In this document: piece after piece, positions 1,548-46,600 of the stretch
Layout: each line of letters opens with the position of its first letter
Position numbering within the stretch: the first letter of the stretch is position 1
NCBI GenBank assembly: GCA_016182085.1
Contig: JACOYB010000004.1
Location: forward strand, 275,923 to 339,922
Source: Candidatus Magasanikiibacteriota bacterium
GTDB lineage: Bacteria; Patescibacteriota; Patescibacteriia; Magasanikbacterales; GWA2-37-8
DNA: 64,000 nucleotides
Reading direction: 5' to 3'
The notes under the pieces: model-generated
The model's database searches: none
What the model was told of the DNA's origin: nothing
Seen by the model: only the letters and a program-made list of their open reading frames with translations
Translations under genes and position numbers: made by a program

Positions 1548-2958
1548 CTGAACCGGTCATTTCCAAAGTAAGCAGCCTGTTAAGTTCAACCGCGTATTCC
1601 ATAGGAAGTTGCTTTACAATTGGGCTGGCAAATCCATTTACAATAAGCGTGGCCGCTTGTTCCTCCGAAAGTCCGCGGCTCATGAGATAAAATAACTCGT
1701 CTTCGCCAATGCTGGCTACAGTCGCTTCATGGGCAATGGTTACGTCTTTTTCTTTAATATCCATGGTTGGATAGGTATCTGAGCGAGAAGCCGGATCAAG
1801 CATGAGCGCATCACAAACCACGCGAGTTTTTACGTTTTGCGCGCCCTTTATTACTTTTACCAAACCGCGGTAGGTAGTACGACCGCCATTTTTACTGATA
1901 GATTTGGAAATAATTGTAGAACTGGTATCCGGAGCCAAATGAATTGCTTTGCCGCCCGCGTCTTGGTGTTGGCCCTTACCCGCAAAGGCCAGAGACTGAA
2001 TTTCTCCTTTAGCGCCTCGTTCACGCAAGATAACACTGGGATATTTCATAGTTGCTTTTGAGCCTAAATTACAATCCAACCAAAACATATGGCCGTTTTC
2101 ATAGACAGATGCTCGTTTGGTAACCAGGTTATATACGTTGCTGGACCAATTTTGAACCGTGGTATATTGCACGCGCGCGTCTTTTTTCACTATAATTTCT
2201 ACCACCGCTGAATGCAGGGAATCGCTGGAGTAGGTTGGGGCGGTACAGCCTTCCACATAATGTACCGAGCTGCCTTCGTCGGCAATAATGAGTGTTCTTT
2301 CAAATTGACCCATGTTTTTCATGTTGATGCGAAAATATGCTTGAAGGGGGAGTTCCACATGGACGCCTTTTGGTACGTAAATAAAACTTCCACCCGACCA
2401 CACGGCCGAATTTAAAGCTGAAAATTTATTATCATGCGTAGGCACAACGGTGCCAAAATGTTTTTTAAATAGTTCCGGATGGTTTTTGAGCGCGTCATCG
2501 GTGGATTCAAAAATTACTCCCTGTTTGGCTAGGTTTTCAGCCAGGGAATGATAAATCATCTCCGATTCAAATTGCGCGCCGGTGCCAGCCAAGAATTTAC
2601 GTTCAGCTTCCGGTATGCCCAGTTTGTCAAAGGTATTTTTAATTTCTGCCGGCACATCTTCCCAATTGCGTTTGGTTTTATCTTGAGGACGAACGTAATA
2701 ATGGATATTATCAAAGTCGATCTTGGACAGATCAGCCCCCCAGGTTGGCATATGTTTTTCCAAAAAAATTTCGTATGCTTTTAAACGAAATTCCAACATC
2801 CATTCGGGTTCGGATTTTTGACGTGAGAGTTCACGAATAATTTCTTGATTCAATCCTTTGCGAGCCGTAAAAATATTTTTAGTATTGGTGCGAAAATCAG
2901 CCGCAGATCTGCTGCCGGCTTTATTTATTATTTTTTTTGTTTTTGTGGGGATTGCCAT
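1540..2958 (-). CDS. sufB: Fe-S cluster assembly protein SufB
   Basis: Conserved SufB blocks (…[29 protein letters not shown]…, …[21 protein letters not shown]…). Start moved to the internal ATG at 2958 (MAIPTKTKK…, 473 aa). The 48 codons upstream in the track ORF overlap the palindromic element and are unlikely to be coding. Confidence 0.9.
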
Positions 2959-15912: not shown

Positions 15913-17148
15913 CTAATTTACGGTTACGATATAGACGATGCCCGATTTGTCATCGGAAATATACATCGTGCCATTTGGCAGGGTGAGAATATCTACGGGT
16001 CTGCCGTAGGTTTTATTTTTTTGTCCCAGCCAGCCAGAAATAAAATCTTCCATGCCGGTTATTTTTGGTTTATCACCGCTGTAATCAACAGTTAATTTTA
16101 CAATTTTATATCCTGTTGGCTTGGTTCGGTTCCAGGAACCGTGAAGTGCAACCAGTAAATTGCCTTTTAGGTTATCCGGCCAGCCGGAATTTGGAATAAA
16201 AGCCAGCCCCAGGGGAGCGGAGTGAGCCGGCAAGTCGTACAGACTGGGAGTTTCAAATGGTTCCATGCACGGGTTGCGAATGTACGTATTCTTATCAAAT
16301 TTAGTATCGTGGATATTTTGTCCGTAACAAATCGGCCAGCCATAATTTTTTTCGTTTTCCACAATATTAATTTCGTCCGGCGGCAGATCGTCTCCGAGGA
16401 AATCTCGTCCCATTTCGGTTGCCCATATCTTGCCGTTTTGCCAGGTAAAAAATACGGCATTGCGCAAGCCTTTGGCATACTGCTTAAAATCATTTCCATC
16501 TTTTTCCATGGAATAAATTGCCGCGCGACGAGTATCTTTTTCATGGCAAGTATCACAAGAAGATCCGATGGAAACGTATAATCTTTTATCCGGGCCAAAA
16601 CCGATGGTGCGAGTGAAGTGTGTGCCTCTGGTTGGCAAGTCAATTATTTTATGTAGGGTATCTTCCGAATATACGCGAACTTTTGATATGCGATGTTCTT
16701 CGGCAATGTAAAGCTCAAACGGATCGTCAGGGTTAAAGGCCAGTCCGTGCGGTTTGCGCAAGCCTTTAAAGACCGCGGTTTGCTTAACAGCTTTTCCACC
16801 CTTTATTTCTATAAGCATAACTTGTCCTTGTTTAGTTTGGCTGACCCATAGATTTCCCAGGCTATCTACAGCTAAAACTCTGGCTCCAGGTACTTTTGCC
16901 AAGGTGTTTATAGAAAAACCAGCCGGTAATTTTAAAGGAATGCCTGTATTGTTTACAGCCGGAGTAGATGTTTGGGAAGAAGATGTGGGGGGAGTGTTTG
17001 TATTTGTTTCAGTTGAGGTTGGGTTAATTTTTTCCGGAGGTTGTAAAGCTATCCATGCGCCGCGTAAATTTTGATAATAAAATATTCCCATGTAAACGAT
17101 GAGCGATAGCGCGATCAGAGTGCCGATAATAAGGATTATTTTTTTCAT
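15913..17148 (-). CDS. soluble quinoprotein glucose/sorbosone dehydrogenase-like beta-propeller protein (SGDH/YliI family), membrane-anchored
   Basis: Start moved to ATG 17148 (MKKIILIIGTLIALSLIVYM, a TM/signal segment), followed by a Thr/Ser/Pro-rich linker. The C-terminal 300 aa carry SGDH-like blocks (…HGLAF…, …GPDKRLYVSIGSSCD…, …NYGWP…). Confidence 0.7.
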   Translation of the reverse strand: MKKIILIIGTLIALSLIVYMGIFYYQNLRGAWIALQPPEKINPTSTETNTNTPPTSSSQTSTPAVNNTGIPLKLPAGFSINTLAKVPGARVLAVDSLGNLWVSQTKQGQVMLIEIKGGKAVKQTAVFKGLRKPHGLAFNPDDPFELYIAEEHRISKVRVYSEDTLHKIIDLPTRGTHFTRTIGFGPDKRLYVSIGSSCDTCHEKDTRRAAIYSMEKDGNDFKQYAKGLRNAVFFTWQNGKIWATEMGRDFLGDDLPPDEINIVENEKNYGWPICYGQNIHDTKFDKNTYIRNPCMEPFETPSLYDLPAHSAPLGLAFIPNSGWPDNLKGNLLVALHGSWNRTKPTGYKIVKLTVDYSGDKPKITGMEDFISGWLGQKNKTYGRPVDILTLPNGTMYISDDKSGIVYIVTVN

Positions 17149-17186
17149 ATTATATTCATCGTATCGCAAAGAGCGGTGCGGGTCAA

Positions 17187-17213
17187 TAAAAAAAACCACC
17201 ATAATATATGTGG
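17187..17213 (-). terminator. strong intrinsic terminator oriented for minus-strand transcription
   Basis: On the minus strand: accacatatattatggtgg hairpin followed by a run of 8 U (plus-strand a-run at 17187-17194). Confidence 0.6.
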
Positions 17214-17737
17214 TAAAAATAGAGCCCTCGGAAACGGAGATGCGCAGGCTACGGCAGGTTGCGTTTGGGGGTAGTTGCCATACAGACTTTGCAGAGGAGG
17301 GGGGAGGGTTGTCTGTACGCGTAACGCGCTGCGCTGCGGCCGCTGAGTCCGGTCGGCATCATCCAAATTGTCTTAGATTTGCTTTCGCTCATCTCGAAGC
17401 CCGCGGGCTCCATTTGGGCGATACCTGCTGAACTGCCTAATCTCCGTTTCCGAGTTCGCAATCATGGTATCAAATGCCTGTATCATTGTAAAGTTTGCAA
17501 AAACAAAAAACAACTTCTTGAGGAAGTGTTAAGAATAGCCGTCACCCAGAAGCCAGAGACGGGCCTTGCAAGGAGTAGAAAAGTCATTCGGGCCATCTCG
17601 GGGGTGAGTGGTCGCCAAACAAATTTTCTACCGCATCCAAGCCTGAGGGAGCTTGGTTGGCTTTAAATGTCGATTCTAGTTCTACACCGGCCTATTGTTG
17701 AATCAACACTTTCCTGCATCTCTGACCTCTGGGGACT
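17195..17737 (-). ncRNA. candidate large structured ncRNA of unassigned class (roughly 540 nt, GC-rich, ORF-free)
   Basis: The 17220-17700 block is much more GC-rich than the flanks. Only short mutually overlapping ORFs occur on both strands. Many local and long-range complementarities exist (ggaaacggagat 17229-17240 / atctccgtttcc 17439-17450; catacagac/gtctgtacg; gcccgcgggc; acttcttgaggaagt; ccaagc…gcttgg). A minus-strand promoter lies upstream at 17744-17772 and a terminator downstream at 17187-17213. Confidence 0.3.
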
Positions 17738-17743
17738 TAAGCT

Positions 17744-17772
17744 ACTTATACCACAAAGCCATACTTTTGTCA
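17744..17772 (-). promoter_or_regulatory. sigma70-like promoter on the minus strand (TTGACA-17-TATAAG) reading into the GC-rich structured region
   Basis: Revcomp of 17744-17772 is TTGACAaaagtatggctttgtggTATAAG. Confidence 0.4.
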
Positions 17773-17833
17773 ATATTCAATATAAAGAATAAGTTGTTTT
17801 TTCTTCTTTTTTTCGTTAAAATAATAGATAAAT

Positions 17834-18529
17834 ATGCCAAGGACAGCAGATCTAAAATTAAACGGAAATAATTGGCAGGTTCACTTACGTGACGAAGCGG
17901 ATGAGAGCGTGTTTAACGAAATATTTAAACTCCATGAGTACCGCCGTGCCGAAGAAGTAATAGAACATGCCAAATATCCAATCGTAGACGCGGGCGCTCA
18001 CGCCGGATTTTTTAGCATGTATTGCCGAAGTAAGAATAAAAAGGTCAATATTTTTGCGATTGAACCTGAGCCGAATAATATTAAATTGTTAAGGGAGCAT
18101 ATAAAGAAAAATAAGATTGCCGGAGTGGAAGTGGTAGAGGCAGCCCTCTCCGTATCAAGCAGTTTAAGAAGTTTATTGTTATCTGCGGATAGCCATAACC
18201 ATAAACTGGCTGAATCGGAAGATTTTGATAAAGTATTAGAAGTTCAAGCCTTTTCTTTTTTGGATTTTTGTAAAAAATACAAGATTAAAAAAATTTCTTT
18301 GTTAAAAATGGATATTGAGGGTGGCGAGTATGAGGTGTTTGATGGCATGTCGGAAGCCGATTTGTCGGTAGTAAATAATATAATTTTGGAGTATCATATA
18401 AGTAGAGAAAAATCCAAAGAAATTGAAGAAAAATTAAGAGCCAACGGTTTTGGCGTACAGATTTTTCCTTCCAAATTTGATAAAACTATGGGCTTTATCT
18501 TTGCCCGTAACAAAAGATTCAACGAGTAA
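17834..18529 (+). CDS. FkbM-family SAM-dependent methyltransferase
   Basis: IVDAGAHAGFFS (SAM-binding G-x-G), …NIFAIEPEPNN…, and …ISLLKMDIEGGEYEVF… is the FkbM-domain signature. Confidence 0.75.
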   Translation: MPRTADLKLNGNNWQVHLRDEADESVFNEIFKLHEYRRAEEVIEHAKYPIVDAGAHAGFFSMYCRSKNKKVNIFAIEPEPNNIKLLREHIKKNKIAGVEVVEAALSVSSSLRSLLLSADSHNHKLAESEDFDKVLEVQAFSFLDFCKKYKIKKISLLKMDIEGGEYEVFDGMSEADLSVVNNIILEYHISREKSKEIEEKLRANGFGVQIFPSKFDKTMGFIFARNKRFNE

Positions 18530-30656: not shown

Positions 30657-31216
30657 GGTTGAGGTGGAAAAACACAAACACCCGCTGGCAGGCGGGTGTC
30701 AACTGATAGATACTTTAGAGATGGTTAAAAATAATCATACCTAAGGTATCTATAAGCTTTATTACCCCTGCTCGGGAGTGTCTTGTAACCTGAAATTATT
30801 CCATAGATGCAGACCAGGCTTATTCCCAAATTGGGACTTTACTGTTGCGGCACAGCGAGGGAATTTAACCCCACTTCAACATATATATGGGCGTTGCCCA
30901 TATATACTCATTCGTTCGGAAATAGCCAGTATAAATATTTTTAGCTCACAAGCGATCAAAAATACTTTCCTGTCTATTTCTCTCACTCATTTCGTATATG
31001 GAATTTTTTGAAAGAACTAAGTATAAGTTTACCGAAGGTTAAAAATAATAGCAAGAGGTTTTAAATTAAAAAACCACTCCAATTGTATTGGGGTGGTTTT
31101 TATTTCAATGGGTACCATTATTTCTATGATCTTCATTGAAATGTACCAGCTGCGTACGGGCAGCTGGCGGGCTTACACATCGCTCTTCTCCGTACAGAAG
31201 AGTTGGTCGGGCTTGG

Positions 31217-31438
31217 CTAGCCCTGCGGCTGGTCGCTCGCGCCCGCGTGCTCGGGGCTCGTGGCCTCGGGTGGCGAGGTGGCGACCGCGGGCTTGGCGGT
31301 CTCGATCTGCTGCTCGGACGAGCGGTCGTAACCGCGACCCGCAGTCATGTTGAGCAGGTCGTCGAGACCGTGGCCACCGTCGAAATCGCCGGCGTTGTTG
31401 TCACGCAGGAAGGGTTCGTTGTGGAGTTTCTTCTGCAT
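31217..31438 (-). CDS. small hypothetical protein with roughly 65% GC and strong GC3 codon bias
   Basis: MQKKLHNEPFLRDNNAGDFDGGHGLDDLLNMTAG…, with GGAG 8 nt upstream of the ATG. The plus-strand ORFs here are Arg-rich antisense artefacts. Confidence 0.5.
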   Translation of the reverse strand: MQKKLHNEPFLRDNNAGDFDGGHGLDDLLNMTAGRGYDRSSEQQIETAKPAVATSPPEATSPEHAGASDQPQG

Positions 31439-31650
31439 CTGCTTTTCTCCAGAGTCAGCACCCGTTCTTGCGAACGCCCCTTAGTGCGCTGCTCAAAGTT
31501 GTTGTTATGTCGGGGAAGAAACACTTTTTAAGTAAAGTAGTTTTTTTCCATACACAACCTGTATATTTGTTTATAAAAATACAAACGTCTTTGCGACGTG
31601 TCATTATGGTATAATTTTTTTGTTTTGTCAAGATGCCAGTATAGCTGATT

Positions 31651-32853: not shown

Positions 32854-34239
32854 ATGCTACCTAATCATTCTCCGTGGATAAAAGAACTTAAACGCACGCG
32901 GCCGGTTGTACCGCTGGACAAAGATTTGCAAACCGACGTTGCGATTGTAGGAGGGGGGATAGCGGGCGTAACAACCGCATTTTTTACGTTACGTGATACA
33001 AATAAAAAAGTTGTGCTGCTAGAGGCGGATAAAATCGCGCACGGAGCTACCGGCCACAATGCCGGACAAATTACCAGTTATTTTGAACGAGGATTTGTAA
33101 ATATGGCGGAAGAATTTGGGTTAGAGATGGCTGCTAGCGGTCAGCGGGCAGTTGAATCTGCCTGGATACTGATAGATGAAATTATGATACAGGCCCAGCT
33201 GCAAACGCCGCTGTACCGTTTTACCGGTTACGCCGGACTCTCAAGCATAAACCAAATACTAAATCATTTAAAAAATAATTATTACCGTGTTAAGGGAGGG
33301 TTGCCTGCCGAGACAATAGTGATTGCCAAGGAATGGGATGATATTAAAAAAATTCCAAAGGAATATGATAATTTATATTCGCTTGTCAGTCATAAAGACC
33401 TGTTGGATTTGCTGGAAACAAACAATCAGGATTATATTGCCGCGCTTTCATATGAGAAAGGCTGTACCAATAGCGCTTTATTTTCCGAAGAATTACTTGG
33501 TTATTTGATAGCTAATTATAAAGATAGGTTTTCTTTTCACGAAGGCAGTCCGGTTAGTACCGTTATGCTTAACGATAAAAACGGAATCTTAAGCGTATTG
33601 AATTATACAGTTACGGCCGAAAAAATAATTTTATGCACCAACGGATTTGAAAGTTTTACGATTATCAATAATGCGGGGCCGGAAATAGATACTAAATTCC
33701 ACGCATCCGTGGCCGGACGCATCGGTTATATGTCCGGATATGTTGAGCCGCTCAGTAATCCGCCTACCGCCATCAGCTATTTCCCCAAAAGAAAAGACGG
33801 CTTAAACGATCCGACCGGAGAAAGTTATTTTTACCTGACTCGTCGGCCGCATGAGCATGAAGGTAAAAAATCGTATAATTTGGTGTGTACCGGCGGGCCG
33901 GAAAAAGTATTACCCAATGGCGCGCAGTATAATCGCGCCGATTCCTGTCCGGAAGATGTAAAGATTTTAATAGATGATTTTTTATACAGTAATCACAATA
34001 AATTTAGGGAAGAATCGGATTTTTCATTTTGTTGGCATGGGCTAATGGGTTATACGCCCAACGGTATTCGTCGGATTGGTCCGGAACCAATAAATCCTGT
34101 TTTGTTATATAATTTAGGATGCAATGGCGTGGGAATACTGCCATCAATATATGGAGGCAAGAAAATTTCCGGTTTTATAAATAAAGAAAAAATGCTTAAA
34201 TCAATTTTTGATCCCACCGATCAGCGATGGGAAGATTAG
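32854..34239 (+). CDS. FAD-dependent oxidoreductase (DAO family)
   Basis: Start at ATG 32854. DVAIVGGGIAGVTTAF is a Rossmann dinucleotide motif, and the C-terminal …YNLGCNGVGI… is typical of DAO-family enzymes. Confidence 0.75.
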   Translation: MLPNHSPWIKELKRTRPVVPLDKDLQTDVAIVGGGIAGVTTAFFTLRDTNKKVVLLEADKIAHGATGHNAGQITSYFERGFVNMAEEFGLEMAASGQRAVESAWILIDEIMIQAQLQTPLYRFTGYAGLSSINQILNHLKNNYYRVKGGLPAETIVIAKEWDDIKKIPKEYDNLYSLVSHKDLLDLLETNNQDYIAALSYEKGCTNSALFSEELLGYLIANYKDRFSFHEGSPVSTVMLNDKNGILSVLNYTVTAEKIILCTNGFESFTIINNAGPEIDTKFHASVAGRIGYMSGYVEPLSNPPTAISYFPKRKDGLNDPTGESYFYLTRRPHEHEGKKSYNLVCTGGPEKVLPNGAQYNRADSCPEDVKILIDDFLYSNHNKFREESDFSFCWHGLMGYTPNGIRRIGPEPINPVLLYNLGCNGVGILPSIYGGKKISGFINKEKMLKSIFDPTDQRWED

Positions 34240-46063: not shown

Positions 46064-46159
46064 AAAAATAGAGCCTATTTTAGACCCGGCTCACAACGAG
46101 GGTCCGCTGGGTGTGCTCTCCTAGACTTTGGCGAAAGTATTAGGAGTGTTGCGGTGGGG

Positions 46160-46438
46160 TTACCGCGGGCAGAAACAGCAAGTGCCTCGTCGGCAGTTGG
46201 TGCAGCCGTTGTGCGCCCGCATACGCCGATCGGCGCAATATGTGCATCCGTTTGTGCAGTAGCCGCAACCCCGCCCCTGCTTGTCGCTCACAGGTTGCTG
46301 AGCTAGCTGTTTGGGCAGGCCTTTGGCTGCGAAGTGGCGAAGCAGGAATATAGTGCAGACGAAGACGGTCACCCCCACAATCAGAAGCAGTACCAGAACC
46401 GGGGTTCCGAGGCCGCTAAACGGGTTGTCTGGACTCAT
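46160..46438 (-). CDS. small membrane-anchored Cys-rich protein, roughly 58% GC
   Basis: One TM helix (VLVLLLIVGVTVFVCTIFLL), then 13 Cys in the last 35 aa (CGYCTNGCTYCADRRMRAHNGCTNCRRGTCCFCP). Composition is atypical. Confidence 0.4.
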   Translation of the reverse strand: MSPDNPFSGLGTPVLVLLLIVGVTVFVCTIFLLRHFAAKGLPKQLAQQPVSDKQGRGCGYCTNGCTYCADRRMRAHNGCTNCRRGTCCFCPR

Positions 46439-46600
46439 CTTTTCTATACCTTTTTTGCTAGACCCCTATTGATTATAGGGGTATTTCTAGTGAAGAAAAC
46501 CAAGATAATCTATATCATTTTTAGCCATTTTTGTCAACCTTAAAGGTAGGGTAATTGCGAAATTTTGTTAGGTGTGCTACCATACTTTTTATATAAAAAT

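Follow-up and report, generated by a model that had tools for sequence, protein, structure and literature searches.

In a 64,000-nucleotide (nt) stretch of the genome of a Candidatus Magasanikiibacteriota bacterium (assembly GCA_016182085.1, contig JACOYB010000004.1, positions 275,923 to 339,922; hereafter the window), an intergenic region rich in guanine and cytosine (GC) very probably holds two separable structured non-coding RNA (ncRNA) genes, denoted RNA-A and RNA-B. The locus lies between a minus-strand sugar dehydrogenase gene and the divergent plus-strand operon of an FkbM methyltransferase, and an earlier note on this DNA had proposed that it encodes one large ncRNA. The evidence, which comes from sequence and comparison, points to a non-coding nature, to the minus strand as the transcribed strand, to a two-unit architecture, to conserved helices and to a conserved C-rich loop. 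That the units are tandem, separately transcribed minus-strand small RNA (sRNA) genes with C-rich loops, acting in trans via base pairing, is a reading to which we give an even chance; the most fitting classification of the locus would be as new families of sRNAs whose functional kind is already known.

The locus and its two units

The jump in GC content that had been noted is real but modest (0.54 at 17200-17500 versus roughly 0.38-0.42 in the flanks), and further GC islands are present elsewhere in the 64-kb window. The open reading frames (ORFs) are indeed only short and overlapping (41-110 aa); none of the five matched Pfam, and a coding reading is ruled out because indels of 1, 1 and 2 nt relative to a close relative (locus L002) shift the frame of every one of them. 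The minus strand of 17187-17745 (559 nt) folds at -194.7 kcal/mol with z = -5.39 and 0/100 shuffles did as well, which bears out the claim of a highly structured region; the plus strand of this interval folds at z = -2.0, and it is on the minus strand alone that the region shows promoter-like boxes and U-runs. The bracketing minus-strand signals were likewise recovered, each one base away from where they had been placed: the promoter TTGACA-17-TATAAG at 17773..17745, left unlisted by the consensus scanner because TATAAG lacks the final T, and the terminator, ACCACAUAUAUUAUGGUGG plus 8 U, at 17214..17188, which falls outside the rule of the scanner because it combines a 5-bp stem with a 9-nt loop. 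The corrected bounds of the GC-enriched stretch are 17188-17773, and the long-range pair drawn within it comprises 15 bp instead of 12, again with a shift of one base (CUCGGAAACGGAGAU at 17454..17440 with AUCUCCGUUUCCGAG at 17241..17227). Rfam 15 was searched with cmscan, at gathering thresholds over the whole window, at E <= 10 over 17000-18000 and, at E <= 1 or the gathering threshold, over nine related loci. Neither the gathering thresholds nor E <= 10 yielded a family for the region, and none was found in the nine related loci, i.e. the region is not assigned to the genes of RNase P RNA (rnpB) or transfer-messenger RNA (tmRNA; ssrA), to signal recognition particle (SRP) RNA or to 6S RNA. 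As proposed, the promoter and the terminator bound an unclassified, non-coding, structured minus-strand locus.

The claim that did not stand is that of a single RNA in the size class of OLE, GOLLD and ROOL. The minimum free energy (MFE) fold of the whole stretch consists of two independent domains without pairing between them, and the sequence that separates the two contains a U-run preceded by a hairpin (17527..17498) as well as a further promoter-like site (17492..17464). Each unit is equipped with a promoter-like site of its own, a long helix that joins its 5' and 3' ends, and a U-run behind a hairpin. Both units occur, adjacent and co-oriented, in the window and in L002; the A unit occurs alone in L033 and the B unit alone in L010 and L032, and A and B are therefore separable genes. 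One structured ncRNA of about 545 nt, spanning the interval between the 17773 promoter and the 17188 terminator and comprising A and B as domains of a single functional molecule, would agree with the position of the outer promoter and the strongest terminator around the whole region, with the conserved tandem arrangement, and with the weakness of the hairpin after A (5 bp, 2 G-C), which makes read-through plausible. It is nevertheless unlikely, given the lack of A-B pairing, the occurrence of each unit by itself, the variation in unit number and type at the locus, and an internal promoter that is conserved with the B-only genomes.

The features of the two units are given below. Both the promoter-like site and the 3' end of RNA-A were read from the sequence, as was the terminator of RNA-B; transcription itself and the exact transcript ends are what we infer.

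17745..17773, minus: promoter-like site of RNA-A, TTGACA at 17773..17768, a 17-nt spacer and TATAAG at 17750..17745
17498..17744, minus: RNA-A, about 240 nt, with 5' UAGCUUAA, closing helix P1, hairpins P1a and P3, the P4 arm and a 3' hairpin with U-run
17713..17734, minus: 5' strand of RNA-A P1, CCCCAGAGGUCAGAGAUGCAGG, pairing with 17573..17545
17545..17573, minus: 3' strand of RNA-A P1 and junction, including the invariant GCAAGGCCCGUCU
17666..17710, minus: RNA-A hairpin P1a (45 nt), carrying AGGAAAGU..AAUAGG; lineage-specific
17637..17656, minus: RNA-A hairpin P3, CCAAGCU-CCCUCA-GGCUUGG, with a C-rich loop; stem conserved in L033
17574..17632, minus: RNA-A P4 arm, GGUAGAAAA ... UUUUCUACU, whose tip hairpin has an ACCCCC loop
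17498..17527, minus: 3' end of RNA-A, ACUUC-CUCAA-GAAGU then UGUUUUUUGUUUUUG; a weak hairpin
17464..17492, minus: promoter-like site of RNA-B, TTTACA-17-TACCAT with TGA before the -10 box (extended -10); listed by the scanner
17188..17457, minus: RNA-B, about 270 nt, with a 15-bp closing helix P1, P2, a C-rich-loop hairpin and the terminator
17440..17454, minus: 5' strand of RNA-B P1, CUCGGAAACGGAGAU, pairing with 17241..17227
17227..17241, minus: 3' strand of RNA-B P1, AUCUCCGUUUCCGAG, pairing with 17454..17440
17358..17422, minus: RNA-B P2 domain, AUCGCCCAAAU ... AUUUGGAUGAU, enclosing the hairpin GAGCCC/GGGCUU (MFE folds)
17282..17316, minus: RNA-B hairpin ACAGAC/GUCUGU with the 23-nt loop AACCCUCCCCCCUCCUCUGCAAA; mean unpaired probability of the C-tract 0.98
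17261..17275, minus: second C-rich single-stranded tract of RNA-B, ACUACCCCCAAACGC (from fold and sequence)
17188..17214, minus: intrinsic terminator of RNA-B, ACCAC-loop-GGUGG plus 8 U

Related syntenic loci were reached via homologues of the dehydrogenase and FkbM proteins; the search of genome and metagenome contig collections with the dehydrogenase protein yielded few close relatives. L002 is a 95% relative, and dehydrogenase identity to the window is about 75% for L010 and L032 and 69% for L033. A blastn search with A and B against all fetched related loci matched L002 only, and the homologues at 69-75% protein identity were found only through reading of the syntenic intergenic regions. 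Covariance models of RNA-A (R1) and RNA-B (R2) were searched in the 64-kb window and in about 240-248 kb of related loci, without further copies of A or B, and paired-cell percentages were compared with those of slid-alignment controls. In the related loci, the closing helix of each unit and several of the inner helices are maintained by compensatory changes.

RNA-A folds at z = -6.0 in the sense direction versus -1.9 in antisense, and has homologues in L002 (95% identity) and at L033:280-440 (R1, 117.5 bits). Over the window, L002 and L033, the 57 predicted pairs are paired in 96% of cells (33-46% in the slid controls) and include 6 compensatory changes. The 17 pairs of P1 are fully (100%) paired in the three sequences, with one compensatory and two one-sided changes, and together with a three-pair GCC/GGC helix, the P3 hairpin CCAAGCU/GGCUUGG and the P4 arm GGUAGAAAA/UUUUCUAC they form the core of the RNA; conserved G-U pairs are present in P1, P3 and P4. 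The base of P4 is invariant and its distal helix has been entirely rebuilt in L033 by 5 compensatory pairs, around a loop that reads GUCCCCCCUCCUCA. The A homologue in L033 is preceded by TTGACA-17-TAGACT and has a U-run directly 3' of P1, and the 3' hairpin of RNA-A is identical in L002. The element UAGCUUAA is invariant just 5' of P1 in A-type RNAs (17744..17737 in the window, L033:280-287), at a distance from the predicted -10 box that differs between the window and L033; a 5' tail of the RNA and a DNA operator are alternative explanations for it. A CCAAGC hairpin resembling P3 is present in unit 2 of L003, which was not picked up in the R1 search, so that its assignment by eye to the A family is tentative. 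A scan of the viral contig collection with the conserved RNA-A pattern gave 0 matches.

RNA-B folds at z = -3.5 and has homologues in L002, L010:2641-2869 and L032:887-1133 (alignment A4), of which R2 gives L010 and L032 195-222 bits; on the L037 unit, R2 gave a marginal full-length match (10.9 bits, E about 0.04). All 13 aligned pairs of P1 are kept in the four sequences (window, L002, L010 and L032), with 4 compensatory double changes, against 43-60% in the slid controls. At the position of P2, L010 and L032 have AUCCAAG...CUUGGAU around GCUGGC/GCCAGC (by eye, in single-sequence folds), and P2 and its enclosed hairpin look compensated by this inspection; P2 was left out of the covariation count because MAFFT misaligned its 3' strand. 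The C positions of the C-rich loop are invariant in alignment A4, this loop region constitutes the strongest G-rich tract on the plus strand of the window, and AACG(Y)(R)ACCU of the second tract is kept in L010 and L032. In both genomes the promoter reads CTTTACA-17-TACTAT, 9 nt from P1 as in the window. A counterpart of the RNA-B terminator, CCAC..GGUGG with a U-run, is conserved in L003, L008 and L037.

Selection on structure and the locus in other lineages

Between the window and L002 both units show about 94-95% nucleotide identity (4.9% of positions differ in A and about 6.8% in B), and 17% of the third codon positions differ in the dehydrogenase gene and 9% in that of FkbM. The substitutions are found at 14 of 145 unpaired and 8 of 296 paired positions (Fisher p = 0.004), and the indels of 1, 1 and 2 nt all lie in loops. 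Within RNA-A, 5 of the 9 substitutions fall in the unpaired loop of P1a, and a sixth (G>A) turns a G-U pair of the stem into A-U. The bias of substitutions and indels towards loops argues for purifying selection on RNA structure.

At about 70-76% protein identity, the intergenic sequence of most relatives can not be aligned to that of the window. These loci still hold one or two units, each with a sigma-70-like promoter, a 10-22 bp helix that joins the ends, GC-rich inner hairpins and a U-run (two units in L003, in L005/L034/L036 and in L008, and one in L037). Across all 17 units that were tested, the z-scores of the folds range from -2.6 to -9.2, and within the trio L005/L034/L036 51 pairs are kept, with 3 compensatory and 8 one-sided changes. 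The constant neighbour of the RNA locus is the divergent FkbM operon and not the dehydrogenase gene, as the latter is missing from L034 and replaced by a helicase gene in L037, and both loci keep the RNA. The genes that flank the locus in the window are the following:

15913..17148, minus: PQQ/GSDH-type sugar dehydrogenase gene (Pfam GSDH), with its ATG at 17148
17158..17186, minus: promoter-like site of the dehydrogenase (GSDH) gene itself, TTGACC-17-TACGAT, separating RNA-B from the gene
17834..18529, plus: FkbM methyltransferase gene, the first gene of the operon

The TTGACC box of the dehydrogenase promoter is conserved in L002, L003, L008, L010 and L032. The plus-strand operon comprises the genes for FkbM, for a DUF6938 protein that shows a glycosyltransferase-like match, and for ORFs of 107 and 727 aa.

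Several side observations concern this neighbourhood. In L034 (2330-3010) and L035, the dehydrogenase gene has been lost between FtsX/tRNA-Gln and FkbM and both sRNA units are kept. The second unit of L005 and of L036 directly adjoins the ATG of the dehydrogenase gene without an intervening terminator. L037 carries, just past the helicase stop codon (2440-2500, plus strand), a GC-rich hairpin with the loop AAUUCCUCCCCCAACCCCUCCUU; this is an additional element with a C-rich loop, encoded opposite to the L037 sRNA. A TAAAAT box lies some 10 nt ahead of the ATG in the gene encoding FkbM and in its orthologues, and this points to mRNAs that are leaderless or nearly so.

C-rich loops, known RNA systems and rival explanations

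Among the unpaired positions of the predicted folds C and A abound, whereas G is scarce (C:G ratios of 35:13 in RNA-B, 21:7 in RNA-A, 19:0 in L037 and 27:3 in L008). A UCCCCCCUCC-like motif recurs in six lineages in addition to the window, in the apical loop of scaffolds that can not otherwise be aligned, and the C-tract has an unpaired probability of 0.8-1.0 in RNA-B of the window, L033, L003 unit 2, L010, L032 and L037. Similar C-tracts elsewhere in the fetched loci lie in coding sequence, outside predicted loops. The loop tracts read as follows:

Window RNA-B: CCCUCCCCCCUCCUC
L033 (A-type): UCCCCCCUCCUC
L037: AUCCCCCCCCCUCC
L003 unit 2: UCCCCCCAUCC
L010: CUCCCCCUCCCC
L032: CUCCCUCCCCCUC

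We propose that the long 5'/3' helix would clamp each RNA and that the stable scaffold would keep the C-rich, G-poor apical loops single-stranded; the exposed loops could then form kissing interactions, rich in G-C pairs, with the rare G-rich sites of other RNAs, and such pairing would alter the translation or the stability of the target RNA. Here, the action in trans and the targets are inferred. The mode is likened to that of the chaperone-independent C-rich-loop sRNAs 6C, sX13 and RsaE/RoxS, and is put forward because these RNAs and RNAIII use stable scaffolds with C-rich loops to contact G-rich stretches of mRNAs, independently of Hfq. By this analogy, we consider C-loop base pairing by trans-acting sRNAs a tentative mechanism, somewhat short of an even chance. 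The unusual features of the present RNAs are the fast turnover of the scaffold around a fixed C-rich loop and a host with almost no use of Shine-Dalgarno (SD) sequences.

The 6C sRNA of Actinobacteria is a GC-rich stem-loop RNA whose C-rich loops contact mRNAs by multiple G-C pairs without Hfq or ProQ (PMC6486639). It has in common with the RNAs described here a stable GC-rich scaffold with C-rich apical loops. In contrast to 6C, which is a short stem-loop RNA, the present RNAs are 240-270 nt long and multibranched with a terminal helix of 15-22 bp, show no sequence or covariance-model similarity to it, and reside in an AT-rich host that does without SD sequences. In Xanthomonas, sX13 presents C-rich (4C) loops on three stems and represses mRNAs with G-rich motifs near the ribosome-binding site, with Hfq being dispensable (PMC3771888). 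Here too C-rich apical loops are found on stems, but almost no gene has a G-rich motif near its ribosome-binding site and there is no homology. In the case of RsaE/RoxS and RNAIII (Staphylococcus/Bacillus), unpaired UCCC/CCCC loop motifs act as seeds, and RNAIII has several C-rich loops and long-range helices that bring its ends together. These RNAs of Firmicutes target SD sequences and are well conserved in sequence, whereas the scaffolds described here turn over rapidly and have no Rfam match. Rfam searches at E <= 10 gave no indication of homology to 6C, sX13 or RsaE/RoxS, so that the relation is one of functional analogy only. What the units would share with C-rich-loop sRNAs are the stable stems with unpaired C-rich apical loops, a trait that is weaker in RNA-A of the window, and, judged by sequence, an own promoter and intrinsic terminator, with boxes that are conserved in relatives.

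A number of points weigh against our proposal. The covariation rests on just 2-3 independent lineages per family, and the clustering of C relative to own composition is moderately significant in RNA-B of the window, L010, L037 and L003 unit 2 (p = 0.006-0.04) and not significant in RNA-A of the window (p = 0.21). An SD-like motif precedes just 1 of the 61 window ORFs of at least 100 aa, so that the classic target of a C-rich loop is largely missing for lack of SD use. RNAduplex runs of four C-rich loops against 53 start regions and the whole window gave no significant site or outlier, and those against the FkbM operon in 8 lineages no conserved site. Finally, an A-to-B read-through transcript is possible because the terminator hairpin of RNA-A is weak. 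A 10-nt perfect loop match at 32949-32958 was rejected, as it consists of glycine codons and is not significant.

The main rival holds that the units are protein-binding or sponge RNAs, whose C-rich loops would bind for instance a poly(C)-binding KH-domain protein. The presence of one loop motif on unrelated scaffolds, the outcome of the duplex scans and a genome without G-rich sites of the SD type would all fit it; the locus offers no candidate protein (its neighbours are the FkbM methyltransferase, the DUF6938 protein and unknowns), and each RNA has only one or two motifs, unlike CsrB-type sponges, which are multi-site. We regard it as rather improbable. The specific readings as a CsrB-like sponge and as a Y RNA were rejected, the former for want of an Rfam match and of repeated GGA motifs and the latter for want of an Rfam match and of a Ro-type gene among the neighbours tested. 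A further reading starts from CCUCC, which is the core of the anti-SD sequence of 16S rRNA and is present in the UCCCCCCUCC loops: these hyper-stable RNAs of a bacterium with almost no SD use of its own could be SD-sequestering decoys to which the producer is immune, acting on the few SD-bearing (foreign or phage) transcripts within the cell or even on the mRNAs of the host bacterium to which the producer, a presumed episymbiont, attaches. This we consider highly improbable.

Quite unlikely is a cis-acting element, i.e. a leader or attenuator of the dehydrogenase gene or a regulator of the divergent FkbM operon, even though RNA-B lies directly upstream of the dehydrogenase gene on the same strand, the second unit abuts its ATG in L005 and L036, and the locus is always beside the gene encoding FkbM. 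A leader or riboswitch role is disfavoured because, in the window, RNA-B and the dehydrogenase gene are set apart by a terminator and by the conserved TTGACC promoter, i.e. the promoter-free coupling to a gene that is typical of a riboswitch or cis-leader was not found; moreover, L034 and L037 retain the RNAs without that gene, and there is neither overlap with the FkbM transcript nor conserved complementarity to the operon. The perfect inverted repeats of 15-22 bp that flank 150-200 nt, together with the rapid turnover of sequence between lineages, bring to mind non-functional GC-rich palindromic DNA, be it similar to a miniature inverted-repeat transposable element with terminal inverted repeats or decayed foreign DNA. 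We judge this very unlikely, as each unit is single-copy in the searched sequence, its position is fixed in all related lineages examined, its helices are kept by compensatory changes, its divergence is slower than that of the third codon positions of the flanking genes, and its promoters and terminators are conserved.

The least probable explanation, to which we give hardly any credit, is a highly divergent housekeeping RNA (RNase P RNA, 6S, SRP RNA or tmRNA) that was missed by the covariance models. It draws on the P1 helix that joins the 5' and 3' ends, as in RNase P RNA and 6S, and on the fact that RNAs of the Candidate Phyla Radiation (CPR) are often atypical. It conflicts with the lack of any match, both here at E <= 10 and in relatives at E <= 1 or the gathering threshold, with the variable copy number at the locus, and with the observation that units can not be aligned at 75% dehydrogenase identity, a rate far too fast for a housekeeping RNA. 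ARAGORN found 5 tRNAs and no tmRNA in the window, and neither ARAGORN nor Rfam revealed a tRNA-like domain with a tag-peptide frame. Bacterial RNase P RNA resembles the units in its terminal 5'/3' helix and in the AGGAAAGU patch, which had been likened to the P4 region of RNase P in the earlier note. The patch (AGGAAAGU...AAUAGG) proved to lie in hairpin P1a (17710..17666) and is not a conserved core element; its likeness appears incidental because P1a is missing in L033. A P4-type core (CR-I GAGGAAAGUCC and CR-V) was found in neither unit, and the Rfam RNase P models did not match. Whereas 6S RNA is a rod-like helix that opens into a large central bubble, the structures predicted here, including those that covary, are multibranched. 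The large RNAs OLE, GOLLD, ROOL and HEARO share with the locus that it is unclassified, GC-rich and highly structured in an AT-rich genome; the locus differs from them in consisting of two units of about 250 nt that are found apart in relatives, in lacking the deep sequence conservation that is typical of those classes, and in that no single structured unit longer than about 400 nt is conserved. Membership of SRP, 6S or OLE/GOLLD/ROOL was not supported by Rfam.

Other features of the window and implications

Besides the RNA locus, the window contains a gene for tRNA-Asn(GUU) (22455-23075, plus strand) of which the anticodon loop is split by a group I intron of about 540 nt. The intron was recognized by Rfam (Intron_gpI, 22743-23019, 73.9 bits) and the split tRNA was missed by ARAGORN. 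The intron carries an ORF of 108 aa (22505..22831), the product of which matches HNH weakly and contains a CxxCH motif; the tRNA gene is uninterrupted in L002 (504-576). Just downstream lies a block of elevated GC (23592-26800) with a ResIII/DEAD helicase gene (GC about 0.51) and an ORF at 25851..26702 (GC 0.59-0.66) without Pfam match, which may be an element integrated at the tRNA. Two GC-rich patches were considered as further C-rich-loop RNAs and rejected in favour of ORFs. The one at 31150-31480, a 70% GC island in a genome of about 41% GC, holds a minus-strand ORF of 73 aa (31217..31438) that has no Pfam match and is preceded by GGAGAAAAGCAG, an SD-like site of a kind lacking in native genes; the island looks horizontally acquired. 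The one at 46090-46440 holds a minus-strand ORF (46160-46438) for a small protein of 92 aa that has a hydrophobic segment near its N-terminus and CxxC repeats in a C-terminus rich in Cys.

To our knowledge, almost nothing has been established on RNA-based regulation in the CPR, and a full-text literature search returned no paper on non-coding RNAs of Magasanikbacteria or on small RNAs of Patescibacteria. The present result corrects the tempting over-reading of the locus as a large RNA of the OLE/GOLLD class, and the two covariation-supported sRNA families, together with several positional relatives, could enter Rfam. If the decoy reading were true, the quick turnover of the scaffold around a fixed loop motif would reflect an arms race. 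For the preferred reading, that of trans-acting sRNAs, the question that is raised is which G-rich partner would be bound by sequence-unrelated scaffolds with one C-rich loop in an organism that is poor in SD sequences.

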